From the NCBI GenBank assembly GCA_963847705.1, contig CAWKBC010000030.1, forward strand, positions 1 through 64,000: 64,000 bases of DNA. Reading direction: 5' to 3'. This stretch comes from an uncultured Pseudomonadota bacterium (GTDB lineage Bacteria > Myxococcota_A > Polyangia > Fen-1088). The position numbers and the translations under genes are program-made. Position 1 is the stretch's first letter. Every line of letters starts with the position of its first letter. The notes under the pieces are model-generated. The model ran no database searches. It had not been told where the DNA came from and saw only the letters and a list, made by a program, of their open reading frames with translations. Below, in pieces: positions 9,538 through 61,609 of this stretch.

Positions 9538-9549
9538 CCGGAGGTTCCC

Positions 9550-17939: not shown

Positions 17940-18023
17940 TCGACACCCGGGAGGGCGCCGGTCGGTGCCCCGACGGGGCCCCCAGGCTGACCGAGTCCCG
18001 CACCGGGACTGCCGTGGCCGTTC

Positions 18024-35825: not shown

Positions 35826-35879
35826 CCCCCACAGACTAACACCTGGGCCCTCTGTTTGGCCGCGCGCCTTCGATTGTGG

Positions 35880-38299
<2,420 letters not shown>

Positions 38300-38303
<4 letters not shown>

Positions 38304-39100: not shown

Positions 39101-39232
39101 TCGAGGTGAAGGCCTACGCTGAATGGCCCGTCCACGTTATGCCCCTGCCACGGCGCTGTCGAGAGCCGCGGCTGCGTCGGGGGGCCAGGGACACGGTCGA
39201 CGAGCTTCGCCGCGTGGGTCTTCAAGGCGTCG

Positions 39233-40711
<1,479 letters not shown>

Positions 40712-41019: not shown

Positions 41020-43419
41020 ATGCGAGACAAGCTCACACTCAAGACACTTTGGTTGCTGCAGTCGAGCGTCCTCGGGTTGGCGCTCGGGGCCGGCGCCGGG
41101 TGCAGCTCGACGAGCAAGACCACCGGGAACGTCAGCGCGCTGCCGGCCGACGTCCAGGCGATCACCTTCTTGCAGCGCACGCCGCGCAACGACGACGGCA
41201 ACGTCTTCGACTACGCCAACTTCGTCCCGGGCGGTCGGCTGTCGATGCTCTCCCCGCCCTCGGCGGACGGGCAGCTGACGGTCATCTTCCCGAACACGGC
41301 GACCTGCACCGCGCTCCTCAAGAACATGGACGGCACGGACGCCTCGCCCACCGACATCAGCAACTGCGTGAGCGGCTCCGACGTCCAGGCGTACAATCTC
41401 TCGTTCGACGCCAAGTCGGTGGTCTTCTCGGCCCAGCTCCCGGGCGACGGCAGCTACCAGATCTATTCGATCAACCTGGACGGGTCGGACCTGAAGCAGC
41501 TGACCAGCGGCGGGAACGACTTCGTCTATCCGGTCTACGCGCCGGGCGATCGCGTCACCTTCATGACCAACCGCAACGTCGAGGCGGACGCCGACCCCAG
41601 CTCGATGCAGTTCAAGGACGAGTACGAACGCGCGGTGACCGCCCAGGTCGGCAGCGTCACCACCAGCGGGACGGACCTGCAGCTCGGACCGCGCAACGTC
41701 TCCCACCGCGTCTCGCCGGCGCTGCTGCCCGACGGCCACGTGCTCTACACCGAGTGGATGCACATGGGCGAGGTCAACGAGGGGCACCTCCGCATGATGA
41801 ACACCGACATGACGGGGATGAAGGAGGCGTTCGGCGACGAGCTCGCCGCGCAGTATCCGTCGACCAACAGCTACCTCAAGGCCCGCTACGTCAAGACCAC
41901 GCCGTACTTCGACGTCGCCGCCAACAAGATGCTCGACGACTATCAGGTCATCGCCGTGGCCACCTCGCGCGATCGCACCCTGCAGTCGGGCAAGCTGTTC
42001 CTCATCGATCTCAACGGCAGCGAGGCCAACTCGACCTCGCAGGACCTGACGCCGCTCATCCCGGGCGATCGGTCGCCGAGCTCGCAGGGGATCGGCCGCT
42101 ACTACGACGCCGAGCCGGTGGGCGACGAGGCCCCGGGGCAGTTCCTCACCTCCTGGTCGGATGGCCCGGTCCAGTCGGAGGAGCTCGACCGCGCGATGAG
42201 CACCGCGCAGTTCGGCATCTACGTGCTCGACGCGGCGAACGCCAACGCCAGCAACGGCGGCCGCTCGCCCATCTACGACGACCCGAACTACTGGGACGTC
42301 CTGCCCCGCCCGGTGAAGGTGCGCCCCGAGCCGGCCAACCTGGCTTCGCAGATCAGCACCACCGACACCAGCACCACCGTCGGCTGCCTCAACGTCTACA
42401 ACTCGTCGCTGCTGACCATCCCGCAGGGGAGCGTGACGAAGGTGCGGCTCATCGAGGGCTTCTCGGGCGAAGAGGGGGGCGTCGACATGTTCGGCACCAC
42501 CGAGTTCGACGGGCAGTCGAAGTACGGCGAGATTCCGATCCAGGACGACGCCTCGTTCGCCGCCGACGTCCCGGCCAACGTGCCGCTGCACATCCAGCTG
42601 GTCGACAAGTTCGGCATGGCCACGGCGGTCAGCGGCAGCCACGGCACGGCCGTGGACACCCCGGTCGCCAACGAGGACATCTGGTTCTCCGGCCGCTCGG
42701 GCGAGTCGCGCTTCTGCGGCGGCTGCCACGAGAACCGCACCGTGGCCTCGTCGATTCAGCCGGGGGCGACCCAGGCCGTCATCCACGGTCCGGTCAACCT
42801 CGACGCGCCCCGGGCCTCTCGCCAGTCGACCACGGCCTACGTGCTCGCCAACGGCGCCCTGCCGGCCGGGACCAACGCGGCCAACCCGGGTGACAACGAC
42901 GTGCGCGGCGTCCCCTGGGATCTGGCCATTCAACCGATCCTCGACGCCAAGTGCGCCACCTGCCACAACGGCGACGCCACCCAGTCCTACAACCCGAGCT
43001 ACACCGTCACCGACATGACCAGCGGGACCTCGCAGACCTTCGTGTTCGACCTGCGCGGCCAGAAGCTCAACGTCACCGTCGGTGAGAAGATGACGGGGGA
43101 CTTCACCGCATCGTACCTGTCGCTGATGGGGCTGGGCGAGATCCTGGGCGACGACGTCGTCAAGATCACCGGGACGCCGCCCGACTACGTGACGGCGGCC
43201 GCGGCCGAGACCAGCAAGCTCATGACCGAGCACCTGAATCCGCCGCAGCGCTACCCGCTCGACACCAACACCCGCCTCGTGCCGGGCCTGGCGGTCCACC
43301 CGGTGGACGTCGGCGGAACCGAGCTGACGCCGGACGAGTACTACCTCTTGGAGCTCAACATCGACATGGGTGGCCAGTACTTCTTCCGGGAGAACCTGGA
43401 CGAAGCAGGGTCTCAGTAA
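41020..43419 (+). CDS. HzsA-like lipoprotein: TolB-like beta-propeller, HZS-alpha-middle-like domain, two c-type heme motifs
   Basis: AAGGAG RBS; lipobox GAGC; LSFDAKSVVFS, P.LLPDG.VLYT.W; GEIPIQDDASF.A.VPANVPL.IQLVD..GMA; CGGCH and CATCH. Confidence 0.78.
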   Translation: MRDKLTLKTLWLLQSSVLGLALGAGAGCSSTSKTTGNVSALPADVQAITFLQRTPRNDDGNVFDYANFVPGGRLSMLSPPSADGQLTVIFPNTATCTALLKNMDGTDASPTDISNCVSGSDVQAYNLSFDAKSVVFSAQLPGDGSYQIYSINLDGSDLKQLTSGGNDFVYPVYAPGDRVTFMTNRNVEADADPSSMQFKDEYERAVTAQVGSVTTSGTDLQLGPRNVSHRVSPALLPDGHVLYTEWMHMGEVNEGHLRMMNTDMTGMKEAFGDELAAQYPSTNSYLKARYVKTTPYFDVAANKMLDDYQVIAVATSRDRTLQSGKLFLIDLNGSEANSTSQDLTPLIPGDRSPSSQGIGRYYDAEPVGDEAPGQFLTSWSDGPVQSEELDRAMSTAQFGIYVLDAANANASNGGRSPIYDDPNYWDVLPRPVKVRPEPANLASQISTTDTSTTVGCLNVYNSSLLTIPQGSVTKVRLIEGFSGEEGGVDMFGTTEFDGQSKYGEIPIQDDASFAADVPANVPLHIQLVDKFGMATAVSGSHGTAVDTPVANEDIWFSGRSGESRFCGGCHENRTVASSIQPGATQAVIHGPVNLDAPRASRQSTTAYVLANGALPAGTNAANPGDNDVRGVPWDLAIQPILDAKCATCHNGDATQSYNPSYTVTDMTSGTSQTFVFDLRGQKLNVTVGEKMTGDFTASYLSLMGLGEILGDDVVKITGTPPDYVTAAAAETSKLMTEHLNPPQRYPLDTNTRLVPGLAVHPVDVGGTELTPDEYYLLELNIDMGGQYFFRENLDEAGSQ

Positions 43420-43441
43420 CAACGGACGGGAGCCAGTGAAC

Positions 43442-44299
43442 ATGCGAATCATCAACATGAACGCAAAGAAGCTCGCGATCGTCGGCACGCTCGGACTCGC
43501 CCTGGCGGCGGGGCGGGGCGCGAACGCTGGGACCGGCGGCAGCGCCTCGACCATCCAGCAGGCCATCTCCGCCAACTCGGTCGACTCCATCAAGGCCGAG
43601 CTCGAACGGACGGAGTTCCTGGTCTGCGCCGCCTGCGTCGATCTGGTCACCCCGCTCGTCGACCACCCGGACGTTCGCGTCCGGACGGTCGCCGCCTGGT
43701 GGCTGGCCCGGCGCGGAATCGCCAAGACGATCCAGGTGCAGATGCTGACCCGGCTCTCGCAGCCCGACTCGACGGCGGCGCTCAACGCGGCTGACGTGCT
43801 GGGCGAGTTCCACTACGTCTCGTCGATCCCGGCGCTGGGGGCCGCGCTGTCGAACCCGACCTTCTCGGGGGCGGCGCGCGCGGAGATGGCCAAGGCGCTG
43901 GGGACGATCGGGCGCCCGGCGGGGACGCAGTATCTCACCACCGCGCTTGCCGACAGCGACCCACAGGTGCGCTCGGCCTCTCTGCTGGCGCTGCGGACCA
44001 TCCCGGGCTTCCACGACGGCAGCGTCGCGGCTCCCCTCATCGGCGACGGCGACGCGGGCGTGCGCTCCGACGCGGTCGTCACCGTCGGGATGTTCAAGTA
44101 CACCGGCGGAGCGTCGGCCCTCGTTTCGGCGCTCTCCGATCCGTCGCAGACGGTGCGCAAGAAGGCGGCCTGGGCGTTGGGCGAGATCGGGGCCTCTGCA
44201 TCGACGGCCGGCCCGGCCCTGCAGAACGCCGCCGCCAACGATCCGAGCCCGCTCGTCCGCTCGCTGGCCAAGGCCGCGCTGACCAAGCTCACGCAATAA
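43442..44299 (+). CDS. Exported HEAT-repeat protein with N-terminal CxxC
   Basis: Signal peptide; CAAC; repeated L.D.D..VR..A..ALG; start uncertain within 43436-43457. Confidence 0.85.
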   Translation: MRIINMNAKKLAIVGTLGLALAAGRGANAGTGGSASTIQQAISANSVDSIKAELERTEFLVCAACVDLVTPLVDHPDVRVRTVAAWWLARRGIAKTIQVQMLTRLSQPDSTAALNAADVLGEFHYVSSIPALGAALSNPTFSGAARAEMAKALGTIGRPAGTQYLTTALADSDPQVRSASLLALRTIPGFHDGSVAAPLIGDGDAGVRSDAVVTVGMFKYTGGASALVSALSDPSQTVRKKAAWALGEIGASASTAGPALQNAAANDPSPLVRSLAKAALTKLTQ

Positions 44300-44387
44300 G
44301 CTCGATTCTCGTCTCTCGCGTCTCGTTGTTCATCGTTGGTCGGTGTTCACAACCCGAGCGGGACTTGGTACAATCGGCGTCCCCGGA

Positions 44388-47300
44388 ATGCGTTCTTCCC
44401 AACAGGGCAGGGTCGGTTACGGGCTCGCAGTCGTGGCTGCGACGTTGCTCTTCGGCTGCCGGCCGGCCTCGCCGCCCGAAGAACATTTCTACGACGTCCA
44501 CATCCAGCCGATCCTCAACGCCTCTTGCGTGGGCAACACGTCGCCTTGCCACAGCATCGCCGTCGATCCGGTCACCAACAAGCCGACCGCCCTCGGCAAC
44601 CTCGATCTCTCCTCGTTTGACGGGGTCCAGAAGCGGCGCGACGTGCTCCGGACCTACGGCAGCTACCCGCAGCCGCTGCTGCTGTTGAAGGCGATGCCGC
44701 CCGAGAGCAACCAGATCCCCTACCAGGGAAACTTCTATCCGAGCGAGATCCAACACAGCGGCGGCTCGCCCATCCAGCCCAACTCTGAAGCCTACTTCGA
44801 GCTGAAGAACTGGCTCGACAACGGCGCCAATCGCGACGGGATCGCGCCCCAGGCGGTCGCCAACAAGGGACAGGGCCCCTGCAGCGACGCGCTTCCTCCG
44901 GTCAGCCAGCGCATCGCCGTCGACACCACCAGCCAGGCCTACCAGGACTTCAAGGACAACATCGAGCCGATGCTCGAGTCGTCGTGCGCCTACGGCAGCT
45001 GCCACAGCTCGCCGCAGGCCGACATGTACCTGACCTGCGGTCAGGGGGGCACCGACCCGGACGCCGAGACCGCCTTCAACTACGCGCAGGTGGCCGGCTT
45101 CGTGATCGCGCCGCCCACCGACCCGACGATGGTCAACGTCGATCAGAGCGAGATCCTCCTGCGGCCGCTGGCCGTCGCGGCCGGCGGTGTGAGCCACACC
45201 GGCGGGACCTTCTTCCAGTCGCGGACAGACAGCACCTGGATGTCCTGGGAGTCGTGGGCCAAGGAGGTCCAGGCCGCGCCGCCGCTCGCCTATGGGCCCA
45301 AGACGGCCGGGCAGACGTTCTTCGAGGAGCACGTCATGCCGAAGCTGCTCGTGCGCGGCTGCGACCTCGAGGGGTGCCACAGCCCCGATGGGTTCAACGA
45401 CTTTCGCCTCCGCTCGGGCGCGTTCGGCTTCTTCGCGCCGGCGGCGCTGACGCGCAACTACCACGCGCTGGCGGACGAGTTCATGGCCTTCGACACCGTC
45501 GACGTCAAGCAGTCACGCGCGGTGAAGAAGAACATCATCGCCGCGTCGGGTGGCACCACCCATCGCGCCGGATCGATCCTGGAGGACATCAACACCTCGG
45601 TCGACACGCCCTGCCCGCAACCGTTCGTCGACGGACCCGGCACGCGTGCCTTCTGCGTGCTCCAGGCCTGGCAGCAGGCCGAGCGGCAGGATCGGATCGC
45701 CGCCGGGAGCGTCTCGCCGATGACCGCCGGCAGCACGCTGCCGCTGGCGTTCGTGGCGCGGCCGACGAACGGCGACAATCTCCTGCACTTCGACACCTAT
45801 GAAGGGGGGGCCGATCTGAGGCTGGCCGACGCCACGCTCGACGCCAACGGCCAGGTGACCGCGGTGGGCAACGTGCGCAGCGCGCTCGGCCCCTGCGCCG
45901 GCCTGGCCGGCGAGGACGTCGACGTCCGCGGCCCCGAGTGGAGCTACGACGCGACCAAGGTGGTCTTCGCCGCGCGGCCGGGGGCGGCCAGCGGGCTCGA
46001 ATCTGTGGATGCTCGACGTGGCAGGCGGGACCTGCACCAAGCTCACCACCGACGCGGGCCGGATGGTCAGCGGGACCAATGTCCGGGTGCACAACTTCGA
46101 CCCGGTCTTCGCGCCCGACAACACCATCGTGTTCGCCTCGACGCGCTCGGGGACCCTCACCCAGCGGAACATGCTCCCCAACTCGGACCTCTTCCGGGTC
46201 AATCCGACCAACCCGGGAACGTTCAGCTACGACTTCAGCAACCCGACGCAGATGACCTTCTTGCTCAACTCGGAGCTGTCGCCCGCCTTCATGCAGGACG
46301 GGCGGGTCAGCTTCACCGCCGAGAAGGCCACCCCCGATTTTTACCAGCTGTCGGGCCGCCGGATGAACTGGGACCTCACCGACTACCACCCGCTGCTGGC
46401 GCAGCGCGCGCAGTCGACCTCCACCTTCGACAACAATCTCTTGCCGTCGGTCGGTTACCAGGAGGCGACGGAGATCCGCGAAGGGCTCGATCGGAACTTC
46501 CTGCTGATCCTCTCGAACGAAGGGGCGAAAGGGGGCGGCGGGGCGCTGGCCACCTTCAACCGCTCGATCGGCCCGTTCGAGGCCGACCGGACCGACGTCA
46601 CCTTCTTGAAATCGATGGTCATCGTCGACCCGGCCGCCGCGCCGGCCGCCGACGGCACCACCACCGGCGCCTACCGCTCGCCGTTCTCGCTCCCCAACGG
46701 CGAGATCCTGGCGTCCTACGACCCCACGGTCAAAAACATCATGACCGACATCCCGCAATATCAGCTGGTCGCGGTCGACCCGCAGACCGGAACCAGCCGC
46801 CCGCTGGCCAGCGACGGGTCGCTCTCCTATGTCGAGGCGGCGCTCGGCTACAAGCGCGGCGAGACGGAGCTGTTCTCGAACCTGCCCCAGCTGGTCTTCG
46901 GCGGCCACGCCGGGCAGACCGACGCCGGCAACAACGGCATCATGCATTTCCCGGATGTGCCGGTGCTGGCCACGCTGCTGGGCGCCAACCTGCGCCGGGG
47001 GCGTGACGTCGCGGCGTTCGACGGGGCAGCGTCGCTGAAGGTCTACCAGGACCTTCCGCCACCGGCGAGCTCGACCACCTCCATCATCCCCACGGGGGCG
47101 CTGGCCTACTCGCAGCTGATGCCCCGCGGCTCGGCGAGCCTCATGGGGGATCACTCGTTGAAGGCGCTCGTTCCCGCCGGGGTGCCGCTGATCCTCGAGT
47201 TCGACGACGGCAACGGGAAGGCCCTGTTCACGATGTCGGAGGAGCACCAGGTGACCGCGGGGGAATACATCACCCCCGGTCCCCAGCGCGCGTTGTTCAA

Positions 47301-47427
47301 CAACATCTGTGGCGGGTGCCACGGCAGCCTGAGCGGCTCGGAGCTGGACGTCGCGGTGAGTGCGGACGCCCTCACCGGCGCCTCCATCTCGCAGTCGCGC
47401 TACGCCGACCCGCAGCAGCTCCACTAG
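44388..47427 (+). CDS. Second HzsA-like multiheme lipoprotein; one apparent frameshift near 46000
   Basis: Lipobox LFGC; CVGNTSPCH, CAYGSCH and CDLEGCH each follow an F...I/V.P.L helix; TolB-like propeller (PEWSYD, FDPVFAPD, SPAFMQDG); VPAGVPLIL; terminal CGGCH. Confidence 0.75.
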
Positions 47428-47564: not shown

Positions 47565-48005
47565 GTGCTCGTCGCCGCTTCCTCGGATTCCAAGCCCTCA
47601 ACCCCTTCGGTCAACTCGGTGGTTCGCCGTCCCGACACCGCCACAGCCGCCATCTTGGCCCTCACAGCTGATCCGGAGGTCCGAGATCTGCTGCTCGAGC
47701 TGGCCATCGCAGAAGGGTTTGGTGTTCGCTGCGCCGAGACCGAGGCCGAAGCGGCCGAGATTCTCGCTCTGGAGCGTCCGGGCCTGGTGCTGGTCGACCT
47801 CGACATGCCGGCACGGACCGGGACGAAGTTCCTGCGGACCCTCCGGCAGGGCCCCTTGAACGGGATCCCCTGCATCGCCATCACCGCCTCCAACGACCCG
47901 ATGCTGGCCGTCAGCGTGGATGCGTCGATCTTCTACAAGCCGGACCTCGACGGGATCGACACGGCGATCGGGCGGCTGTTCTGGCCCGAGACCTACGGCC
48001 GCTGA
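47565..48005 (+). CDS. Stand-alone response-regulator receiver domain
   Basis: PGLVLVDLDMP, AITA, KP; N-terminal acidic pair is degenerate (LTAD); start uncertain. Confidence 0.75.
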   Translation: MLVAASSDSKPSTPSVNSVVRRPDTATAAILALTADPEVRDLLLELAIAEGFGVRCAETEAEAAEILALERPGLVLVDLDMPARTGTKFLRTLRQGPLNGIPCIAITASNDPMLAVSVDASIFYKPDLDGIDTAIGRLFWPETYGR

Positions 48006-48157: not shown

Positions 48158-49393
48158 TCAAAAACGGACCGAAAATGACCCTTGCAGGATGTGGGCGTAA
48201 GGGCGGTCGGGGTTGGGCGCGTAGATCGAATCCAGGTGATAGACGAGCAGCTCGTACTTCACGTCGGCCTCCATCTCGGCGAACCAGCTGGAGCGCTCCT
48301 GCTGCGGGCGGCGCAGGAAGGCCATCCGGCCGCCGACCAGATAGTTGCTCATCGGCGACAGCTCCCGGTCGCCGGTCCAGTACTGCCCGGCCGGGCCGAG
48401 GATGTGGTACTGGTCGCTGTTGCGATAGAAGCTGGCGCCGCTTTGCAGGTGATAGTGGCCGCGCAGGGACAACAGCATCACCGAGCTGAGGTACTTGTTC
48501 ACCACCAAGTCGCCGGTCACCGCCTGCATCGCCCAGCTGTCCTCGTAGAGGCGCGCCATCCCGATCCCCGACGCGCGCCACTGCGGAAAGGCATAAGCCG
48601 CGCGGGCGAAGAGGGCGTAGCGCTGGCGGTAGGTCGGCTCGTGCTCCTGCGGCTCCTGGTGCTCGCCGCCGACCTGCACGCTCCGGTAGGGGTTCGACTG
48701 GAAGCCGTCGAGGATCTGGATCGTACCGCCCCCCTGGATCACCAGGCGGGGGGTCATCGTCCAGGAGAGCGAGGGCTCGACCGCGTCGATGCTGAGCGGC
48801 TGGGTGACCACGTCGGTGTAGGTCGAGTTGAAGCAATGGGCGGACGACGTGAGCGGCTGCAGATGCAGCGCCGTTTCAGCCATGCTGTTGTTGGCGTCGC
48901 AGACGCTGTCCCAGTTGTGGCTGTACGCCACCACGAGCGTGAAGTTGTGGTCGTAGAGATCGTCGCGGGCGGTGACGGAGAGTGAGTGCGATCGGTAGTC
49001 ATGCTCCCAGCCGTAGGCGTAGGAGGCGCCGATGCCGGCGTCCGGGCGGTTGTAGCTGAAGCCGCCGTGGACCTGCTGGCGGAAGTCCTGGAACGGGGTG
49101 GCCTTGGTGACGGTGTCGACGAACACGGCGGGGGTCGCGCCGCTGACCGCGTCGGCCTCCCAGCCGGCCGTGACGCCGAGGCCTCCGCCGATCGGCGAAG
49201 CGGCATCGACCTGCGGGTGAATGACGGTGATCCCTTTGTTGCTGGTGGACGGCTCGCGGAAATACGTCAGGCGCGCCGAGGCCTCTGTCGGATCGTCGGC
49301 GCGCGCCGGCGCGGCCGACAACAGGGCCGAGACCAGGGGCAAGACGGCCGCCGCCAGGGTGAGGCGCGCCGGGCGTCTCAGTTGCAACCGCAC
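48158..49393 (-). CDS. DUF3570-family predicted outer-membrane protein
   Basis: (M)RLQL start overlapping the DUF4266 end; DAVSGAT, E.DY.S, GFQSNPYR, DSW, TGDRELS, terminal Phe. Confidence 0.8.
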   Translation of the reverse strand: MRLQLRRPARLTLAAAVLPLVSALLSAAPARADDPTEASARLTYFREPSTSNKGITVIHPQVDAASPIGGGLGVTAGWEADAVSGATPAVFVDTVTKATPFQDFRQQVHGGFSYNRPDAGIGASYAYGWEHDYRSHSLSVTARDDLYDHNFTLVVAYSHNWDSVCDANNSMAETALHLQPLTSSAHCFNSTYTDVVTQPLSIDAVEPSLSWTMTPRLVIQGGGTIQILDGFQSNPYRSVQVGGEHQEPQEHEPTYRQRYALFARAAYAFPQWRASGIGMARLYEDSWAMQAVTGDLVVNKYLSSVMLLSLRGHYHLQSGASFYRNSDQYHILGPAGQYWTGDRELSPMSNYLVGGRMAFLRRPQQERSSWFAEMEADVKYELLVYHLDSIYAPNPDRPYAHILQGSFSVRF

Positions 49394-49644
49394 CCTCCGC
49401 CGGCGGTCCCACTCCCTCCGATCGCGCCCTCGCGGTTCTCCAGGATGTGCTGCTCGGCGGCCTGCTCCTGCCCGATGGCGTCGAGCGACATGATCCGGTC
49501 GGCCAAGAGCTCCCGCTGGTGGGGCCGCACGGTCCACTTCGAGGCCGCGCACCCATTGCAAACCACGGCCGCCGCCGCGACGGCCACCAGCGCCAGGCGG
49601 CGCAGGACGCCTCTCCCGCGGCTAAAAATAGACGCTGAGTGCAC
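49378..49644 (-). CDS. DUF4266-family small lipoprotein
   Basis: Lipobox CNGC; VRP.QRE.LAD..M...REGA.GG.G..GGGCGCN-stop. Confidence 0.88.
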   Translation of the reverse strand: MHSASIFSRGRGVLRRLALVAVAAAAVVCNGCAASKWTVRPHQRELLADRIMSLDAIGQEQAAEQHILENREGAIGGSGTAGGGCGCN

Positions 49645-50395
49645 CTGAGTACTCCTGGATTCGTTGGGTGTGGTTGGCGTCGAAGATGACGTACTGGCGG
49701 GCGTCGCCCCGCAGCGTGAGGCGCTTCTTGAGCGCGACGATCAACCCTCCGCCGACGTTCAGCATCGAGTAGTTGCCGGTCTGGATGGCGAACTGATCGG
49801 CCTTCTTGTGGCCGAAGGCGCCACCCGCCGAGGCCCCCACGAAGGGCGTGACCGGCGACGAGGCGAACAGGAAGGCGTTGAAGCCCCCTCCGGCATAGAT
49901 GACGTCGATCTGGTTGCCGACCGTCTCGCCGATCATCCCCTCGAGCGAGACGTGCGGCGCCAGGAGCCAGGAGGGGCGGAAGAGAAACATTCCGTCGCCC
50001 CCCAGGACGCCGGCGGAGAAGGTGAAGCCGACATTCTCCTCCTCCAGCGGCGGAGGCGAGAAGACCGCGGTCCCCATCCGCTTCCAGACCGAGGGGCCCT
50101 CGTGCGCGGCGGCGGTGTCGACGTCGAGCGGGAAGACCTCGTCTCCCAGGATCCAGCCGTAGGTGCCGTCGGGGAGCTCGACACGGAACCAGTGATCGTG
50201 GGAGGCCCGGCCGATGGCGGGCAGCACCTCGTTGAGCTTGGCGCGGTAGACCACCCGGAACGCGAAGCCCGGTCCGGTGTGGACCTGTGCCTCCTCGGCG
50301 ATCACGCGCACCAGCGCGCGGTCGTCGGCGCGCGCCCGGAGCGTCGTCAGCAAGACGACGGCGATGCAAGCGCCCCCCAACGCGCGGACGATCAT
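49622..50395 (-). CDS. SH3-domain plus small outer-membrane beta-barrel protein
   Basis: Signal peptide; VHTGPG...WFRVELPDGTYGWI (SH3b); amphipathic strands; terminal YF. Confidence 0.75.
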   Translation of the reverse strand: MIVRALGGACIAVVLLTTLRARADDRALVRVIAEEAQVHTGPGFAFRVVYRAKLNEVLPAIGRASHDHWFRVELPDGTYGWILGDEVFPLDVDTAAAHEGPSVWKRMGTAVFSPPPLEEENVGFTFSAGVLGGDGMFLFRPSWLLAPHVSLEGMIGETVGNQIDVIYAGGGFNAFLFASSPVTPFVGASAGGAFGHKKADQFAIQTGNYSMLNVGGGLIVALKKRLTLRGDARQYVIFDANHTQRIQEYSGALSVYF

Positions 50396-50871
50396 GGCGA
50401 CGTGACCCACGCCTGGAGGGTGGTGACGAGATCCTTGGCCTGCTGCGAGGAGGGATCGATCAACTCGCCGCCGCCGTGGACCTGGATGTTTTCGGGGAAC
50501 GTCAGCAGCCGACTGTCGGGCGCGTCGGAGCAGCTCATCTGCTGGGAAGCCTGCGTATAGTCGTCCAGGATGTCCTGAGGGAGCGGGTTGGGCAGCGGCG
50601 TCGGAAGCGCGGCGATCTCGGCCGTGATGTCGGTGAGGGTCATCTGCGTGAGGGTCCCGAGGCCGTGGCAGCTGGAGTCGAAGCAGTGCTTCCCGTTGTA
50701 TTCCAGCCCCAGGAACATCGGCCAGATCGTCGTGACGAAGTACTGCTGGCCCGGCTCGCAGATGTTCACGTCGGCGGGCGGCGCGCCGAGGTCGACGGTC
50801 TGGCAACCGAAGGCCCCGCCCAGCAGCGAGGCCGCCGCGAGGAGGAGGAGACGACCGGCGCGGCGGCTCAA
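50392..50871 (-). CDS. Small lipoprotein with a CX4CH putative heme motif
   Basis: TTGA-coupled start; lipobox AFGC; YFVTTIWP...CFDSSCH...SRLL..P...HGGG. Confidence 0.7.
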   Translation of the reverse strand: MSRRAGRLLLLAAASLLGGAFGCQTVDLGAPPADVNICEPGQQYFVTTIWPMFLGLEYNGKHCFDSSCHGLGTLTQMTLTDITAEIAALPTPLPNPLPQDILDDYTQASQQMSCSDAPDSRLLTFPENIQVHGGGELIDPSSQQAKDLVTTLQAWVTSP

Positions 50872-51485
50872 AACGTGTACCTCAGGTAGGTGGTCGCCAT
50901 CAGCTCCTGGCTGCTGGAGAGCTCCGCCATGACGAAGTAGCCGCCGCGCAGGCCGACCGAGAAGTGCCGCGACAGCGAGTGGTAGTCGATCCCGGCGCCG
51001 CCGCCCGCGATGAAGCCGACGCGGTACCGCGGCTCGACCCCCAGCACGTAGAGCGCGTTGGTCGACAGCCGCTCGGCCCCGATTCCCCCCTCGCCGAAGA
51101 TCGAAGTCTGACCGAAGCGGTAGGTCAGCTTCCCCTCGACCAGCGCCTGGTAGGTCTGCAGCAGCTGGCCGTTGAGCGGGTTGTCGCCGGTGAGCTGATG
51201 GGTCGAGCCGACGAAGTGCGCCTGCAGCGCAAAAAAGCGGAAGAGGTCGTAGCCGACCCGCGCGCCGATGGCGAAGCCGGGGGAGACGTCGTTCCCCGCC
51301 TTGCCGAAGAAGGCCACCGAGCCGACCTCCCCCTCGGTGAAGAGGCCGTGGGCGAACTTGGCCGGGTCGGGGAAGACGACGGCGCTCGGTTCGGCGGTGA
51401 CCTGGGCGCGGGCGGCGGACGCGCCCGCGACCAGCCAAGACGTCACCAACGCCGCCATCAGCTTGCGAGATCGTCTTGGTCTCAA
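50868..51485 (-). CDS. CglE/GltH-like outer-membrane beta-barrel protein
   Basis: Signal peptide, about 8 amphipathic strands, GIDYHSLSRHFSVG, terminal YTF; position after gltG-like. Confidence 0.6.
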   Translation of the reverse strand: MRPRRSRKLMAALVTSWLVAGASAARAQVTAEPSAVVFPDPAKFAHGLFTEGEVGSVAFFGKAGNDVSPGFAIGARVGYDLFRFFALQAHFVGSTHQLTGDNPLNGQLLQTYQALVEGKLTYRFGQTSIFGEGGIGAERLSTNALYVLGVEPRYRVGFIAGGGAGIDYHSLSRHFSVGLRGGYFVMAELSSSQELMATTYLRYTF

Positions 51486-51498
51486 TGGCCCCTGGTCG

Positions 51499-52347
51499 TC
51501 ACATCATGGCCGGCGCGGGCGGGACGAACAGCGTCGGCGTCGGCGAGAAGAGCGTGTTCGTGGTGTCGTGCAGCAACTGCCCGTCGTCGTCGCGGACACG
51601 AATGTCGTAGCTGCAGGACATGCTGCGGTTGGCGGTGAAGCTGACGTCAATCTCGATGAGCGCGGGGATGACGACGTTCGGCGGCACCATGCTCAACCCG
51701 ATCGGATTGACCTGCGAATTGTTGATCAACACGGCGTTGAAGGGGGCCATCCAGCGACCGATGGCGTCCAGATCCAGCTCCGCCTCGTTGAAGTCGTCCT
51801 CGCGCACCGTCCCCGAGATGGTCTGCCCGGGGGCGATCGCCTGCGGGGTCACCGGGATGAGCGGGATGTACTGGGGGGGATCGTCGTTCCCCTCACCGAG
51901 CGTCATGGCCACGATGTTCGAGTCGTACTTGGTGTACTCGTTGGCGCCGTCGATCCCGATGCTGAACTGCGAGGGTCCGTCGGTGTTGTCTCCGTCCATG
52001 GGCGTGTAGGTGACCTGGTAGGTCAGCTCGATGTGGACGTGATCGCGCTGGATCCAGGGAACGTCGAACCCCAGCGTGGCGGTCTGCGTGTCGAGCTCCT
52101 TCTTCTCGGCGTCGGTCGGGTTGCGAAACTGCAGCGTCATCCCGTTCTCGATGCGGGGCGAGGCCCCCGTCATGTCGGCGCTTCCGCCGCTGATCACCAG
52201 CGCCGGGGTGGTGGGCGAGGCGAAGTAGATCGGCGTGTTGTCCATCCCCTGGCAGCCGAGCGCCAGCGGCGACAGCAGCGAGAGGGCCAAGGCGACCTGA
52301 CCGCCGGCCCGGGTGCCGCCCTGTTTGCCCCATAAGCATCCTGGCAT
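51499..52347 (-). CDS. Hypothetical acidic lipoprotein
   Basis: Start overlaps the gltG-like stop; lipobox ALGC. Confidence 0.75.
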   Translation of the reverse strand: MPGCLWGKQGGTRAGGQVALALSLLSPLALGCQGMDNTPIYFASPTTPALVISGGSADMTGASPRIENGMTLQFRNPTDAEKKELDTQTATLGFDVPWIQRDHVHIELTYQVTYTPMDGDNTDGPSQFSIGIDGANEYTKYDSNIVAMTLGEGNDDPPQYIPLIPVTPQAIAPGQTISGTVREDDFNEAELDLDAIGRWMAPFNAVLINNSQVNPIGLSMVPPNVVIPALIEIDVSFTANRSMSCSYDIRVRDDDGQLLHDTTNTLFSPTPTLFVPPAPAMM

Positions 52348-53756
52348 CAGGACCCTCCTTTGAAGACGAAGGGAAAGCGGCCGACGATCGTCTGCCCGGG
52401 CGCCTTGGGGAACTGCCACTGCTTGACCTGGCGGACGATGCACCCTTCGACGGCGGCGTCGTTCATGGCGCTCGATTTGACGTTTGCCTTGCTGACGGTG
52501 CCGTCGGGCTGAATCACCCAGAAGATGTCGATGTTGCCGGAGAGCGAGCTCTTGTGCTGGAGCTCCTTCTCGTAGCAGTACTTCACGCCCGCGAAGTGGG
52601 CCTTGACCACCTTGTAGACCTGATCCTTCGACAGCGAGCCGTCGGTGTCGCCGCCGCTGGTGCCGAGGCCGACCGACACCTCGTGCTCGCCGCGCTCGGC
52701 CAGCTTCGGTCCGCGGCCGTGGCCGTGCGCGCCCCGGCCGCCAGTGTCGAGGTTGCCGGCGCCGTAGATGTGCCCGTAGCCGGTGCCGCCGCCGCCCGGC
52801 CCCGACCCGCTGGTGGCGAGGCCGCCCGCGCCGTGTCCGACGACCATCTTGGCGCCGGCCATTCCCGCCATCGCCTGCTCGACGTCGTTGCTCTGCGCGA
52901 ACAGCCTGGAGAGCCCCGAGCCCGGCGCCTTGTCGCGCCCGATGATGCTGAGGATGCCGACCTTCTGCACCTTCTCGCGCAGGATGTCTTCCCGCCCCTT
53001 GGGGATGACGGTCTCCTTGGGGGTGGCGTCGTTGCGGCCGATGCGGCCGGCCTTCTCCTTGGCGCGCTTGGTCTGACCTTCCTTCTCGGTCGACTTCTCG
53101 GCCTCTTCCTCTTTCTGCTTCTTGACCTCTTTCTTCTCGAACTCGATCGCCGCGGGCGCTTCGATCTTGGCCACCCGCTGCGCGTCGAGCGCCAGCGGCG
53201 GCTTGGGCTCCGTCTTCTCCCACATGATGTTGAGGAGCAGGGCCAGCGCGCCGAGCACGATGCTGGTCCCGACGGTGATCTGCACCATCTGCGGATCGCG
53301 CACGCGCGGGCGCGCGATGAGGTCCGGGGGATCGACCCAGCGGAGCTCGAGCCGCACGTCGCTGCCGTCGGCGAAGATCAGCTTGGCCTTGTCGCCGCGG
53401 GCGAGGTCGACGTCGCGCGAAGCGATGTCGGCCACCGATGTGCTGATCCCGCCCAGCGTCAGCTCTCCCTTGAGCGCCGAGGCGAGGTGAAGGACGTAGC
53501 CGTCGCGGCGCGGCTGCAGCAGCAGGAACTTGCTCTTCCCCTCCAGCGCCGGCGTCGCGAAGGTGGCGCGCTTCGACGGTCCCACGGTGATCTTGCGGCG
53601 ACGCGCCAGCAGGCGATAGCCGATGATCTGGCCGCGCCAGATCATCGCGACCTGGAGCATCGCGTGCGCCGTCACCGGACGGGGCGCCGTCCGACGCCGC
53701 ACAGGCTGAGGGCCCGGCGGAGCTGGCGGCAGCGCGTGAGAGTGTGTGGTTGCCAA
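52347..53756 (-). CDS. GltG/AgmX-PglI-like protein with TM, charged linker and TonB-C-like domain
   Basis: LQVAMIW.G N-terminal domain, single TM, Gly-rich linker, VKYCYEKEL...LSG...I.PDG.V...GCI...WQFP...FPFVF. Confidence 0.8.
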   Translation of the reverse strand: MATTHSHALPPAPPGPQPVRRRTAPRPVTAHAMLQVAMIWRGQIIGYRLLARRRKITVGPSKRATFATPALEGKSKFLLLQPRRDGYVLHLASALKGELTLGGISTSVADIASRDVDLARGDKAKLIFADGSDVRLELRWVDPPDLIARPRVRDPQMVQITVGTSIVLGALALLLNIMWEKTEPKPPLALDAQRVAKIEAPAAIEFEKKEVKKQKEEEAEKSTEKEGQTKRAKEKAGRIGRNDATPKETVIPKGREDILREKVQKVGILSIIGRDKAPGSGLSRLFAQSNDVEQAMAGMAGAKMVVGHGAGGLATSGSGPGGGGTGYGHIYGAGNLDTGGRGAHGHGRGPKLAERGEHEVSVGLGTSGGDTDGSLSKDQVYKVVKAHFAGVKYCYEKELQHKSSLSGNIDIFWVIQPDGTVSKANVKSSAMNDAAVEGCIVRQVKQWQFPKAPGQTIVGRFPFVFKGGS

Positions 53757-53777
53757 GGGGTCACCTATTTGTCTACG

Positions 53778-54239
53778 TCAGAGGCTCTTGTCATCGGCGC
53801 TTTGGCCGAGCTCCTTCATGAACGAGCGCTTGTCGGGCGCCGACATATCGAGCTCCAGCTTGACCCGGTTCAAAAAGTAGAGGAGTTGCGGGGTCTTGAG
53901 CTTCCCTTCGACGTCCATGGCGCCGAAGGTGTAGGTCTTGGTCTTGACGTTCTTGCCGCCGGCCTTGGCCTCCCCGGCCGGCTTGGCGTCGTCGGAGGAC
54001 TGGCCGCCACTTTGGCCGCCGCCTTCGTTCGACCCTTCGGCCTCGGCGACCGGCGCCGGCGGGGCGACACTTCGCTCCTGCGTGTGCGCGGGCGCCGGTC
54101 TGTGGGCCGCCGCGTGTCGCCTGGCCGGCTTGGCCAGCGCGCGGCCGTCAATCGCCAGGGTCAGCGCGAGGGCCAGCGCCAGCGCGGCCACCCGCGGGAC
54201 GAGCCTCCCCGTCAGTTGCAGTCTCGCGCGAGGTCTCAC
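53778..54239 (-). CDS. GltF/CglF-like small exported protein
   Basis: Signal peptide; YTF...DVEGKLKTPQ..Y...RSF; lies between gltE-like and gltG-like. Confidence 0.65.
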   Translation of the reverse strand: MRPRARLQLTGRLVPRVAALALALALTLAIDGRALAKPARRHAAAHRPAPAHTQERSVAPPAPVAEAEGSNEGGGQSGGQSSDDAKPAGEAKAGGKNVKTKTYTFGAMDVEGKLKTPQLLYFLNRVKLELDMSAPDKRSFMKELGQSADDKSL

Positions 54240-55939
54240 TTCAGCTCCTTGAGCCGCGCCTCGACGTCGGCGCGGCGGGCGTCGTCTTTCCCCACCGCCT
54301 GCAGGTACTGGGTGAGCAGATCCTTGGCCTTGGCCGGGACCTTGTCGAAGTCCATGTAGAGGACGCCGAGATCGTAGAGCGCGGGCGGATAGTCGGGCTC
54401 GATGTCGAGCGCGCGTTCGTACGCCTTGCGGGCCTGATCGAATTTCCCTTCGCCACGCGAGGCGACGCCCAGCGCGACCTGCGACTCGGCGTCATTGGGA
54501 TCGATCTCCACCGCCTTCTCCAGATCCGCCCGCGCCTTCTTGTAGTCGCCGCAGTCGAGGTAGACGACCGCCTTGTTCAGGCGCGCCTGGACGTACTTGG
54601 GATCGAGCTCCGAAGCCTTTTGAAAGTCCAAGAAAGCCTCCTGGTCATGACCGCGTTCGAAGGCGACGAGGCCCAGGTTGTTCCAGACGAAAGCACTCTT
54701 GGGGTCGAGATCCGACGCCTTGTGCAGCGCGGTCTCGGCAAGTTCGAACTTCCCCATTTTATAGTAGGTCAGCGCCAGAGCGTTATAGGCAATTACGGTG
54801 TGGGAGACGTCCCCACCTGCCTCCGTCAGCAGCAAACGCGCCTGTTCCAGCGATTCGTCGAGCGTCGTCGATCCTTGTTCGCCCGCTTCGCGCAGCACCT
54901 GGCTGTAACGGGCGCGCATCTCGAAGTCGTTGGGGTCGGAGGTGAGCCAGCGGGAGTAGACCTCGCCCGCTCGCTTTCTACCTTGGCCGTTCTTCGAACG
55001 ACGCAGGCTCTCACCGTAGGCCAGCACCGTCTGGCGGGCGCCGGGCTGGATGTCGAGCGCGTGCTTGAAGTCGTCGGCCGCGACGTCGAAGTTGCCGAGC
55101 GCCGTCTCGACGACGCCGAGATCGTGCCAGGCCTCGAACAGGCGCCCGTCGAGCCGCGTGGCGCGCGTCAGCGGCTCGAGCGCGTCCTTGTAGTGCTTGC
55201 GCCCGGTGCGCATGATCCGGACGCCTTCATCAAACGCCGCTTGGGCTTCGGGGCTGGTCTTGGGCAAGGCCACCGGCGCGATCGGATTGACGGCCGTCGT
55301 CCCCGGAGGCGGGGCCTTGTGGGCGCAGGCGCCCAACAGTCCCCCGCTCAGCGTCGCCACGGCCAACACCCACGCCAACGCTCTCGATCGCAGCGAAAAC
55401 CACGCGAGCGCCGGGATCACCACCTCCTCGCGCTCACGTGAACCCCGGGCCGCGCGGAATCGGGAGCCGCCCGCTCGATTCGTCTGATCCTCCGCACGGG
55501 ACTTTTTTCCGGCCGCGGTGAGCGCACCTGTCGATTCGAGGCCGCGCTCACCGCGGCCGGAAAAAAGTTCATGTGCGGAGGCGGAGGGGAGAACGAGCGG
55601 GCGACCTTGATTCCGCACATGCCCGGGGTTCACGGGCGGCGCGTTTACGCGCGGCGAGTTCAGGTTCGGTATCGCGCCGACTGGGACAGAGCGCGCGGCC
55701 GATGCGCGAAGCGCGAGGCCCGTGAGGCGTGCCGATGCGCGAAGCGCGAGGCCCGTGACGCCCGCGCGACATGCCGATGCGCGAAGCGCGAGGCCCGCGA
55801 GGCCCGTGAGGCGTGCCGATGCGCGAAGCGCGAGGCCCGCGACGCCCGCGCGACATGCCGATGCGCGAAGCGCGCGGCCCGCGCGGCCCGCGCGGCCCGC
55901 GACGCCCGCGCGGCCGCGGGTGGGGCGTCTATTGATCAC
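54236..55939 (-). CDS. GltE-like TPR lipoprotein; conserved part starts near 55420, true start uncertain
   Basis: Lipobox LLGAC then multiple TPRs. The frame is open to GTG 55939, which has a GGAGGT SD 5 nt upstream; GTG 55420/55423 is the alternative. Confidence 0.75.
   Translation of the reverse strand: MINRRPTRGRAGVAGRAGRAGRALRASACRAGVAGLALRASARLTGLAGLALRASACRAGVTGLALRASARLTGLALRASAARSVPVGAIPNLNSPRVNAPPVNPGHVRNQGRPLVLPSASAHELFSGRGERGLESTGALTAAGKKSRAEDQTNRAGGSRFRAARGSREREEVVIPALAWFSLRSRALAWVLAVATLSGGLLGACAHKAPPPGTTAVNPIAPVALPKTSPEAQAAFDEGVRIMRTGRKHYKDALEPLTRATRLDGRLFEAWHDLGVVETALGNFDVAADDFKHALDIQPGARQTVLAYGESLRRSKNGQGRKRAGEVYSRWLTSDPNDFEMRARYSQVLREAGEQGSTTLDESLEQARLLLTEAGGDVSHTVIAYNALALTYYKMGKFELAETALHKASDLDPKSAFVWNNLGLVAFERGHDQEAFLDFQKASELDPKYVQARLNKAVVYLDCGDYKKARADLEKAVEIDPNDAESQVALGVASRGEGKFDQARKAYERALDIEPDYPPALYDLGVLYMDFDKVPAKAKDLLTQYLQAVGKDDARRADVEARLKELK
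55437..55634. repeat. 198-bp imperfect palindrome (MITE-like)
   Basis: Nested inverted segments: cgtgaaccccgggc, gcggaatc, cgcccgctcg, cctccgcac and a perfect 25-bp arm (55501-55525 / 55544-55568) around an 18-nt loop. Confidence 0.9.
55698..55915. repeat. Tandem array of five gccgatgcgcgaagcgcg units
   Basis: Units at 55698, 55731, 55773, 55815 and 55857 (periods 33, 42, 42, 42), followed by 9-bp gcggcccgc repeats. Confidence 0.9.
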
Positions 55940-58900
55940 GTCGCACCTCCTCGATCCGGTCGAGCGTCACCCGTGGCTCGCCTGGGCGGGTGGAGAGCCG
56001 CAGCTCGGCCTCCTTGGGGAATTCGTTTTCGGCCAGGCGCCCCAGCGCCTGCCGGATCGCTTGCGTGTGCTTGTTGTAGACGCCGATCTGCAGCGCGCGC
56101 GCGTAGCCGGACTTGTAGGCGTCGATCGCCTTGTCCTCGATCACCACGATGACCTTCTCCAGCTCGTCGCGGTACATCTGCTTCTCGTCTTCCTTGAGGT
56201 CCTTCGGGACCGGCGCGTTGCGCATCGCCTTGGCGAAGGCCTCGTAGCCCTGGCCGATGCGCAGCAGCGAGGCCGTTGCCCACTCGGGTGACTTGTAGGT
56301 GACGACGTCGAGATAGATCGACTTCGCCTCTTCGAGCCGCTTGGCCTTCTCCTCGAGGACCTTGGCGAGCTGCCTCGGCTTGCCGGCGATCTTGATCTTC
56401 TCGTAGTCGAGGTAGGCCAGCTCGCCCTGGATGTAGCGGGCCTCGGCGGCGTAGTAGCTTCCTTCGTCGCTCCCCTTGCCGTGCTTGCCGTAAGCGGCCA
56501 GCGCCTTGGCGGCGGTCTCCTTGGCGGCGGCGTCGTTGCCGGCCTTGAGGTGCGCATCGGCCTCGCGGGCCAGCGCCTCGACGGTCTTGCCGTCGCCCGG
56601 GTAGACCTTGCTGAAGGCGGCGAACGAGGCGGCGGCGCCGCGCCAATCCTTCTGATCCTCGCGCACGACGGCGGCCTGAAAGGCGACGTCCTTGGCGTCG
56701 GGGCGGTCCTTGTAACGCCTGGCATACTCGCCGTAGTGCTTGATGGCCCGGTCGTGCTGGCCCAGGCTCTGGCGCAGGACGCCGGCGGAGCGGAGCGCGT
56801 CGGCGGCGTGGCTGTTCTGCGGATACTTCGCGGCCAGCTGTTCGTAAAGGCCGGCGGCCTTGTCGTAGTAGGCGATGTTCTCCTCGATGCGGGCGGCGGT
56901 GAAGAGCGCCTCGGGGGCCTCGCTGGCCGCGGGATACGTGTCGGCCAGCTGCTTGTAGGCGGCGACCGCCTCGTCCTGCTTCTTCTCCTTTTCGTAGACC
57001 ACGGCCGCGTTGTTGAGCGCCTTGGGGGCGTAGCCGTTCTGCGGATACTCGTTCGGCACCCGCAGGAAGAAGGCGGCCGCCTTGTCGTACTCGCCGCTCT
57101 GCGCGTACTTCTCGCCCGACTTCATGACCGCGCCGACGATCAGCTTGTCGAGGCGATCCTGCTCGTCCTTCGAGGCGAAAGCCTTGGTCTTCTTGAGGCG
57201 GCGCGCCCAGCTCTCGATGTTCTCGTAGTCCTTGGCCTTGCCGAGCGCCTGCAAGATGCGATCGCCGGCGGCGCCCGCGTTGGGGTCGTCGGGGTAGCGC
57301 TCGACGATCAGGCCGAACCGCTTGACCGCCTCGTCGTAGTCGCCGTAGTCGAAGAAGAACTGCCCGTTCTTGTAGATGACGGTGACGATCTCCTTGTCGT
57401 TGGGGAAAAGCGTGGCGTAGAGGTCGGCCGCCTCGCCGAACAGGCGATCGCTGTCGGTGATCTCGCGCTTGCCGGCGCCGGCGCCGTTGCTGGGGATCGG
57501 CTTGCGGACCTTCTCGAAGGCCCCCATCGATTGCAGGAGCGCGTCCTTGTGGTACTTGCCGACCGGCTGGGTCTTGCCGACGGCCAGGTACTCGCGGCCG
57601 GCGTCCTCGTATTTGCCGAGCTTGAAGTAGAGGATGTCGGCGCGCAGGTAGCGCAGCTCGGCGGCGTCGAGCGCCTCGGGGAAGTTGGCCAGGTAGAACT
57701 GGTAGGCCTCGGCGGCGCGCGCGTAACGATCCTTGTCGACGACCTTGGTCGTCTTCTCCGTCTGCTGCGCCTCGGCGTGCATCGTCTTGGCCAGGTTGCG
57801 GATCAGCCCCTCGGCCATGGTGCGGGCATGCTCGACCGCCTTCGGACGATCCTTGTTGGCGGTGGCCCAGGCGCTGCGGGGGCCGTAGTCGCCGGCCAGC
57901 TTCCGCATCTCCTCGACGGCGGTCTTGGTGTCGCCGAGGAGCTGATACCCCTCGACGATCTTGCCGGCGTGGTCGGGGGCGTCGCTGGCGTTGGGATCGA
58001 GCTCGATGAGCAGCCGATAGGCCTCGACCGCGCGCTCGTAGCGGGTCTGGTCGAAGACCGTGTCGGCCAGCTGCTTCAGAACCTTGCGCGAGTATTGCTT
58101 GCCGCCGATCTGGGCCAGGAACTCGAAGGCGTCGCGGGCCGTCTTGGTGTCATCCTCCGTGAAGAGCTCGACCAAATAGTCGAGCGCCTCGCCCTGCAGC
58201 TCCTCGGCCCGCTTCTGCTGCTCCTCGCTGCGCCCCGCCTTCTTCTTGGCGAGATCGAGCACGTCCTTGAACCGCAGCGCCGACTTGGTGGTGTCGCCCA
58301 GCTTCCAGTAGCACCAGGCGGTCTTGAACAGCGCCAGATCGTAGAGCGTCGACTGGGGGTGCTCGAGGACCTTCTCGTAGGCCTCGAGGGAGGTCTTGTA
58401 GTCCTGCTGCTCGTAGAAGCGGTACTCGGCGATCGCCATCCAGGCGTCGGCGATGTAGCGGGAGCGCGGGTACTTATCGAGGATGATCTGGAAGTACCTG
58501 ATCGACTCGCCCAGCTTCCCCTGATCGCGCAGCGAGAAGGCGTAGAGGTAGATGACCGTGTCGATCTTGCGGAACTTCGGGTACTGGTCGATGAGCTGCA
58601 GGTAGGTCGCCTGCGCGCGGCTCAGATCGATGGTCGGCGGGCGGTGCGGAACCTTCGGGCATTCCGCGCGATCGGCGTGACAGGCCGACACCGCCGCCTG
58701 ATAGCGCCCCATCTTCTCGAGGTAGACCTCTTTCGACTCCTCCCAGTAGAGCTCGGCCAGCTTGTAGAGGGACTCCGCCTGCTCCTTGGCGCGGAAGCCG
58801 GCCGACCCGCGCGGGTTCTCATGCAGGTAGGCCTCGAGGAGGCGGATCGCCTCCCGCCGCGCCTCGGTGATCTGCCCTTCCTTCTCTTCCAGCGCCTTTT

Positions 58901-61604: not shown

Positions 61605-61609
61605 CGTCG

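Follow-up and report, generated by a model that had tools for sequence, protein, structure and literature searches.

Relatives of the alpha subunit of hydrazine synthase (HZS), the HzsA family, are already known from outside the anammox bacteria (PMC12758564, PMC10732223). Those assigned to clades I–IV, from Planctomycetota, Desulfobacterota and others, are of unknown function; they keep the alphaI heme motif, the Tyr591 region being deleted, and their alpha and beta-gamma genes are linked, in several clades together with FG-GAP genes, while clade I is without His772 (PMC12758564). Motifs of the [ST]GA[ST] type are flavinylated by ApbE in one DUF3570 protein (PMC8238504), and paralogues of the Glt machine have distinct and mostly unknown functions (PMC3169522). 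The locus described here lies in a 64,000-nt stretch of DNA from an uncultured bacterium of the class Polyangia (contig CAWKBC010000030.1, positions 1 to 64,000; hereafter the window). Three genes, named A, H and B, form an operon encoding two HzsA-like lipoproteins and an exported HEAT-repeat protein, and a neighbouring operon encodes a small lipoprotein, C, together with DUF3570, DUF4266 and Glt-type proteins. Fold, motif conservation, repeat structure, gene order and co-occurrence lead us to propose, at what we judge to be an even chance, that A, H and B form a lipid-anchored c-type heme complex of the envelope, an electron-transfer or redox module working with the DUF3570/DUF4266/mono-heme C module and with the Glt/Nfs-type machine.

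Architecture and fold of A, H and B

The three genes are co-directional and occupy the span given by an earlier, sequence-only reading (41020-47427). That reading had counted six heme motifs, three CxxCH, two CX4CH and one CX6CH, all of which are present, but it had missed an extra base that breaks B.

41020..43419, + strand: gene A, HzsA-like lipoprotein of 799 residues (lipobox Cys28) with a six-bladed propeller, a middle domain bearing an alphaI-type CGGCH and a C-terminal alphaII-type domain with CATCH and His760 (PF18582, E 1.5e-7; structure match to 5C2V)
42715..42729, + strand: A heme site 1, CGGCH (residue 566) at the alphaI position, followed by E-N-R-T and without a Tyr591 equivalent (motif and alignment)
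42952..42966, + strand: A heme site 2, CATCH (residue 645) at the alphaII position; its likely sixth ligand, His760, is at 43297-43299 (motif and alignment)
43442..44299, + strand: gene H, exported HEAT-repeat protein with a signal peptide of cleavable type and a CxxC (CAAC) at 43625-43636 (family match, signal prediction and co-fold model)
44388..47427, + strand: gene B, lipoprotein (lipobox FGC) with three tandem CXnCH...HxxG domains, a propeller and a middle domain with CGGCH, without a C-terminal alphaII domain; frameshifted in the assembly (motifs and fold)
44526..44552, + strand: B repeat 1 motif, CVGNTSPCH (CX6CH)
44985..45005, + strand: B repeat 2 motif, CAYGSCH (CX4CH)
45360..45380, + strand: B repeat 3 motif, CDLEGCH (CX4CH)
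46000..46001, + strand: frameshift in B, one surplus base (contigs from read runs, and relatives)
47308..47322, + strand: B alphaI-type CGGCH, followed by G-S-L/I-S and without Tyr (motif and alignment)
47565..48005, + strand: stand-alone response-regulator receiver, adjoining B only in close relatives (family match)

AlphaFold2 models of A and B were confident, with predicted local distance difference test scores (pLDDT) of 89.3 and 91.3, respectively. The best match in the PDB for both was the HZS alpha subunit, 5C2V, in agreement with the layout that the sequence-only reading had recognised. A matched the complete propeller, middle domain and alphaII layout (E 7.3e-32, template modelling score, TM, 0.62). 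B matched the propeller and middle domain only (E 4.2e-22; Z 33.5, root mean square deviation 3.6, 477 aligned residues, chain positions 31-622), three N-terminal helical domains standing in place of the C-terminal heme domain. TolB was the next-best fold, with a Z for B of 27.6 against 33.5 for HZS alpha. A and B share 19% identity across the propeller, and in a midpoint-rooted tree of 67 cores they are not sisters, B joining a second Myxococcota clade with a support of 1.0, apart from A and the other HzsA-like proteins; the branching orders within A and within B largely agree. On these sequence comparisons A and B are distant paralogues of different subfamilies. The earlier description of two paralogous lipoproteins around an exported HEAT/CxxC protein holds with that amendment, the lipoboxes, signal peptide and CAAC all being in place.

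In the window B is not one open frame, being split by the +1 frameshift at 46000/46001. The B gene of most relatives is an open frame of approximately 1000 residues, contigs from three of four public runs lack the base at 46000 (the fourth run has no contig spanning the site), and comparison of A-H-B with its nearest relative shows no other coding indel left uncompensated. An assembly error is therefore likely and a strain-specific break less so; B as a pseudogene is unlikely, the indel standing alone and being absent from the related contigs. An intact B orthologue stood in for the frameshifted copy in the analyses. Named homologues belong to Polyangia, and among 301 genomes of the phylum full-length matches to B were limited to the host's class. 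Extra or detached copies of B without adjoining A and H exist at three loci. A scan of the locus for promoters and terminators returned nothing usable. Window positions 34434-40711 hold a divergent operon encoding a Ser/Thr kinase, a TPR protein, an RCC1-repeat lipoprotein and an FHA-sigma54 activator, which is kept beside A in close relatives.

Several features separate A and B from hydrazine synthase. Tyr591, the proximal ligand of heme alphaI, is not kept: A reads CGGCH-E-N/S/D-R-T and B CGGCH-G-S-L/I/V-S, Tyr being absent from the residues common in these columns. From the lipid Cys to C566 no Cys of A is conserved, so that A cannot keep the zinc ligand Cys303, which is not universal in anammox bacteria (PMC12758564); B has invariant C480 and C526 as possible counterparts. 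The bis-His feature of alphaII is kept by sequence in A, where CATCH is accompanied by His760 near the aligned His772, which in HZS serves heme alphaII as its sixth ligand (PMC12758564); B is without this domain. Against NCBIfam NF052339, with its cut-off of 800 bits, A scored 56.7 bits and the B orthologue 19.4 bits. No linked hzsB/C (beta-gamma) gene was found in the window. The host genome encodes four unlinked proteins of approximately 700-780 residues with a diheme CcP/MauG-like C-terminal domain, three of them with propeller matches, a beta-gamma-like architecture that scores far under the NCBIfam cut-offs; a full-length match to such a protein was obtained in two of five other A-positive genomes. 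The absence of HzsB/C reported in the sequence-only reading accordingly applies to the locus and to true orthologues, the genome itself holding unlinked propeller-plus-diheme proteins. The genome also encodes two proteins with eight heme-type motifs. A search for the HzsBC-like gene of B's sister clade gave propeller-only or weak matches in the host genome and none in five A-positive genomes, a weak negative with no positive control.

Given the absence of Tyr591 and of a linked beta-gamma gene, and scores far below the cut-off, we reject a true hydrazine synthase. A near relative forming N-N bonds is extremely unlikely: the whole-length match of A to the 5C2V fold and the unlinked beta-gamma-like proteins would accord with one, but A has no conserved propeller Cys for Cys303, the beta-gamma-like match is full-length in only those two of five genomes, and a heme-copper oxidase is present.

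Where sufficient DNA was available, among 76 loci, gene A has H behind it in 59 of 59 cases and B comes next in 55 of 55. The CxxC of H is invariant in 64 rows, which were chosen for having it. Co-folding of A with H scored 0.81 against 0.00 for the best control, the runs agreeing in at least 67% of contacts with a partner pLDDT of at least 88; the mark is reached by 116 of 157 solved pairs and 2 of 215 mismatched pairs, figures roughly applicable here. In the model H grips the propeller of A with its CxxC outside the listed contacts, and H is predicted to clamp that propeller. We know of no solved complex like A-H.

A heterodimeric envelope redox enzyme or sensor had been suggested from the sequence. 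Of that interpretation the HzsA-like fold, the conserved heme motifs, System I maturation genes in the genome and a predicted complex, at least of A with H, are supported. It is very unlikely that A-H-B acts as a redox or gas sensor signalling to an adjoining receiver or kinase: close relatives do have the receiver after B and a Ser/Thr kinase gene divergent from A, but in distant loci both genes are missing from the surroundings of A-H-B, and A, H and B gave no family match or signal for a membrane-spanning transmitter. Overall, what the sequence-only reading observed is confirmed, and its interpretation is partly supported; besides the frameshift it overlooked the repeat nature of B's unusual motifs, with their second His, and the association with the neighbouring DUF3570/DUF4266/C/Glt operon.

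Heme motifs, the repeat domain of B and lipoprotein C

Conservation was assessed in alignments of 95 A homologues (14 distant) and 122 B homologues (17 distant). The heme Cys and His are kept in all 95 A rows and in 121-122 of 122 B rows, so that the residues proposed earlier as heme sites proved near-invariant in orthologues; the alphaI CxxCH itself is kept in 95/95 A and 121/122 B rows. In shuffle tests none of 5000 sequences exceeded two motifs for an intact B homologue, where four are observed, or one motif for an A homologue, where two are observed. The three CX4-6CH motifs of B belong to a small domain that is repeated in tandem, and every copy has, in HxxG, a second His that does not vary (H100, H247 and H369; 122/122); His760 of A is present in 85 of 95 rows, including all 14 distant ones. 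B has in addition three further invariant Cys pairs of disulfide-like character.

The spacing of the Cys residues varies within single sites. Repeat 1 of B reads CX6CH in 114 and CX8CH in 8 of the 122 rows, with CX4CH in all rows for repeats 2 and 3, and the alphaII site of A is CxxCH in 93 of 95 rows and CX4CH in two, an interchange that recurs at the same site in B's sister clade. Among the sequence data, this interchange within a single site of A speaks most strongly for heme binding by the wide motifs. CX4CH binds heme in cytochrome c3. The data suggest that the wide CXnCH motifs bind heme, and heme attachment is predicted. Export signals and conserved CXnCH motifs, as in c-type cytochromes, are accompanied in the genome by System I maturation genes, namely three PF01578 genes including CcmF- and CcmC-like open reading frames.

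The repeat domain of B also occurs on its own in the neighbouring operon:

50392..50880, − strand: lipoprotein C, small, with CFDSSCH and HGGG; single-domain homologue of the B repeats (motif and hhalign)

Profile comparison by hhalign shows C to be a homologue of B repeats 1, 2 and 3 (86, 97 and 96%, respectively). Its orthologues, recovered by pattern at 18 of 20 loci and separately at the other two, have a Cys spacing of 4 to 13; at 11 loci C orthologues combine CX8CH to CX13CH at the conserved site with a conserved second His (HPR). In an atlas search with the N-terminal arm of B the nearest clusters lay at 0.90-0.92, some of them named cytochrome c or PSCyt1, which serves as a lead only, and a cluster look-up of ten distant representatives returned no informative names.

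Other observations count against this reading. CcmE was not found in the host genome, which is 85% complete, so that the check for cytochrome c maturation genes proposed with the sequence-only reading returned CcmF- and CcmC-like genes and no CcmE. Direct profile comparison of the C-terminal domain of A with C and B repeats 2-3 was weak (hhalign 1-33%), the 88% obtained with repeat 1 extending over only 21 columns; what relates the B repeats and C to alphaII is therefore a set of motifs in common, together with a local 5C2V match that is weak. Finally, these Cys could be disulfides or metal ligands instead of being heme-linked, since the spacing in C runs from 4 to 13 and known wide heme motifs, such as the CX15CH of a Wolinella cytochrome, need dedicated maturases (PMC3601427, PMC12285233).

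The corresponding alternative is that the CXnCH...H domains carry no covalent heme, holding a disulfide plus metal or a non-covalent heme, and that the complex, with its TolB-like propellers, belongs to the Glt-type machine as a component of its structure or assembly. We regard this as distinctly improbable. It would accommodate the spacing in C, the rank of TolB as next-best fold, the modelled grip of H on a propeller face and the disulfide-like Cys pairs of B, but it sits poorly with a site of A that is CxxCH in most homologues and CX4CH in others, with the alignment of the second site of A to the solved bis-His alphaII heme site of HZS, and with the near-complete retention of the alphaI CxxCH.

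Association with the flavinylation and Glt-type genes

The neighbouring operon is convergent to A-H-B. Glt-type genes come first, followed by C, the SH3-barrel gene, DUF4266 and, at the end, DUF3570:

48158..49393, − strand: DUF3570 protein with an SGAT flavinylation-type motif at about 49133-49144; start approximate (family and motif)
49378..49608, − strand: DUF4266 small protein with the C-terminal end GGGCGCN; start approximate (PF14086, E 1e-18)
49622..50398, − strand: SH3 plus outer-membrane beta-barrel-like protein (profile match)
50868..63210, − strand: Glt/Nfs-type operon encoding a CglE(GltH)-like protein, a lipoprotein, a GltG-like protein, a small protein (GltF by position), a GltE-like protein, a large TPR protein (GltD by position), a GltC-like protein, an unknown and two OMP_myx_plus barrels (GltA/B by position) (profiles)

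The Glt-type proteins are clear homologues, although all matches fall below equivalog cut-offs except that to the TIGR04565 domain, and the GltG match does not begin until about model position 180. The [ST]GA[ST] motif is present in 30 of 30 DUF3570 orthologues for which the N-part was recovered (two fragments being set aside), and DUF4266 lies ahead of DUF3570 in all 20 stretches around distant orthologues; a second flavinylation-type motif in the window DUF3570 is degenerate. An apbE gene is present in the host genome on another contig.

Co-occurrence was determined in an unselected draw of 161 genomes of the class Polyangia. A was found in 60, as was the DUF3570 orthologue, and the two coincide in 59; the GltC orthologue was found in 58, always together with A. 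The pattern is patchy within five families (A in 14/24, 8/24, 4/11, 1/9 and 21/23). The controls were broader in distribution, COX1 occurring in 130 of 161 genomes, a second GltG paralogue in 141 (86 of the 101 A-negative genomes among them) and ApbE in 141, including all 60 that are A-positive. In one of the exceptions, genome G407, the glt contig starts where DUF3570 sits in its kin. An earlier set of 42 genomes chosen for B gave the same split, 30 to 12, and is not independent.

Gene order adds to this picture. In distant relatives A-H-B lies between a gene which, from its sequence, we take to be mutS and the gene of a conserved exported protein of approximately 330 residues. The same pair is near-adjacent in the host genome with no A-H-B between (contig C27:757019-761742), so that A-H-B appears to have moved beside the Glt/DUF3570 operon in the host lineage.

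The sister clade of B presents a second Myxococcota operon type, comprising a B-like HzsA homologue, a CXnCH lipoprotein, DUF3570 and a propeller-diheme beta-gamma-like gene. Across its 11 loci the beta-gamma-like gene occurs in 11, C in 10, DUF3570 in 9, ApbE in 5 and DUF4266 in 5; linkage to a beta-gamma gene, by which the Hzs-like clades are recognised, is therefore complete. The gene content suggests an Hzs-like alpha/beta-gamma module tied to flavinylation genes. A metagenome scan with a sister-clade protein yielded one locus. In a further cluster (6671-20000 of its stretch) a beta-gamma-like gene is joined by genes for a pair of B-like proteins, a diheme oxidoreductase (DHOR) and a multiheme protein with ten motifs.

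Other results count against a working link between A-H-B and its neighbours. A-H-B adjoins DUF3570 in only 24 of 76 loci, mostly in nearer relatives, and of 20 distant DUF3570 stretches none has A, H or B and three have Glt genes. The 11 sister-clade loci show neither Glt genes nor H, and the flavinylation motif is intact in only three of seven sister-clade DUF3570 rows. The cluster holds no apbE, and none of the 23 proteins scanned in the window gave a thioredoxin-family match. The controls numbered only three and, because kin are not independent, a shared lifestyle block could yield the same co-occurrence. Under that explanation, which we consider unlikely, A-H-B would act in the envelope as a heme enzyme complete in itself, inherited alongside the DUF3570 module and the Glt operon only as parts of a lifestyle such as gliding predation, with no physical link. 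The wide separation of the three modules in most distant genomes, the position of A-H-B in distant relatives, between mutS and another conserved gene, and the small number of unrelated controls are in its favour. It is harder to reconcile with the co-transcription of B's sister clade with C, DUF3570 and often ApbE, with a lipoprotein C that copies B's own domain, with the apparent move of A-H-B beside the module in the host lineage and with the much broader distribution of every control.

If A-H-B does work with these modules, ApbE, encoded elsewhere, would attach flavin mononucleotide (FMN) to DUF3570. Electrons would then pass from this FMN to the mono-heme lipoprotein C, on to the three-heme arm of B and the alphaII heme of A, and from there to the alphaI-type hemes of A and B, a chain that we infer from the arrangement of sites. 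The small His/His-ligated hemes would carry electrons and the two His-ligated, catalytic-type alphaI hemes would be the reaction sites, with H as a clamp on the propeller of A. Shortly ahead of the alphaI motif, residue 552 of A is E in 87 and Q in 8 of 95 rows, and Glu930 of B is invariant; by analogy with CcP/MauG, these residues may have a peroxidase-like role. An acidic or amide residue near the alphaI pocket would favour the reduction or activation of a small O-O or N-O substrate, and the chemistry would take place where the Glt-type machine meets the surface. Given a real module, peroxide-type chemistry is possible rather than probable, with substrate and electron direction guessed. Candidate needs of a Glt-type machine are modification of a surface polymer, peroxide handling at contact sites and reductive iron uptake. 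A bolder and more doubtful version holds that one Polyangia Glt/Nfs paralogue has a dedicated electron conduit, consisting of an outer-membrane protein bearing flavin, small heme domains of a new family (spacing 2-13) and two HZS-fold catalytic hemes, that would serve redox chemistry at moving adhesion or prey-contact sites. If true, HzsA proteins outside anammox would thereby gain their first known function, and a Glt-type machine would acquire a part in redox chemistry.

The host genome holds two further DUF3570/DUF4266 pairs, one with a thioredoxin-like open reading frame after it, and a second Glt core (GltC-, D-, E- and G-like) that adjoins polysaccharide export genes (contig C23:58000-70139) and whose GltG is the paralogue matched in 141 of 161 class genomes. 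Plasmid searches yielded no DUF3570 match, nothing closer than remote SUMF1-type proteins of Bacteroidota, and a single weak match that was unrelated.

Comparison with known systems

The B repeat architecture, the range of Cys spacing, the A-H model and the link to DUF3570 and Glt are apparently new, although supplementary data of PMC8238504 and PMC12758564 could be relevant here. A literature search that left subscription papers mostly outside found neither a report of these proteins from Myxococcota nor one connecting HzsA with DUF3570 and Glt. The main text of PMC12758564 makes no mention of Myxococcota or Polyangia, and three small supplementary files of PMC8238504 gave no match, the large cluster table of that source being one that could already list such neighbours. 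The locus links three sets of unknown function, the non-anammox HZS relatives (PMC12758564, PMC10732223), the DUF3570/DUF4266 flavinylation clusters (PMC8238504) and the non-motility Glt paralogues (PMC3169522), in a form that can be tested directly in aerobic myxobacteria. Many soil myxobacteria carry two distant HZS relatives without the key catalytic tyrosine, inherited along with a gliding-type machine and an outer-membrane protein that is predicted to bear flavin, and hzsA-like matches in soil data need not mean anammox. HzsA emerges as a modular scaffold: the heme arm can sit at one end or the other, and the partner can be a HEAT protein or beta-gamma, a point of interest for the origin of anammox. 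The motifs form a natural series for the stretch limit of heme attachment, and screens for CxxCH only would miss them.

With the ApbE-DUF3570-DUF4266-thioredoxin clusters described in PMC8238504 the neighbouring operon shares a [ST]GA[ST] DUF3570 right behind a DUF4266 with a CXC tail, and an apbE in the genome; here, in place of a clustered apbE, thioredoxin or DsbD, there are a CXnCH lipoprotein, an SH3-barrel protein and a Glt-type operon. A single operon that unites genes of GltC-, GltE-, GltG- and CglE-like type with those of two OMP_myx_plus barrels recalls the Agl-Glt/Nfs machinery of Myxococcus xanthus (PMC3169522). The matches are, however, below equivalog cut-offs, other GltG and GltC paralogues exist in the genome, and no redox partners are noted for the M. 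xanthus machines in the accessible text of that source. Variable Cys spacing ahead of a His ligand is shared with the widened-motif cytochromes c, whereas here a single domain family covers spacings of 2 to 13, with no linked gene for a dedicated maturase.

Clades I–IV, as the accessible text of PMC12758564 describes them, resemble A and B in keeping the alphaI motif and losing the Tyr591 region; here the linked beta-gamma gene is lacking, and A retains the second His. Against HZS alpha itself A and B are lipoproteins of 13-17% identity without Tyr591, A has no conserved zinc-site Cys, B has three N-terminal heme-type domains and no C-terminal one, and the partner is a HEAT protein in place of beta/gamma. 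What both have in common with HZS alpha is the propeller, the middle domain and the alphaI position, to which A adds the alphaII domain with its second His.

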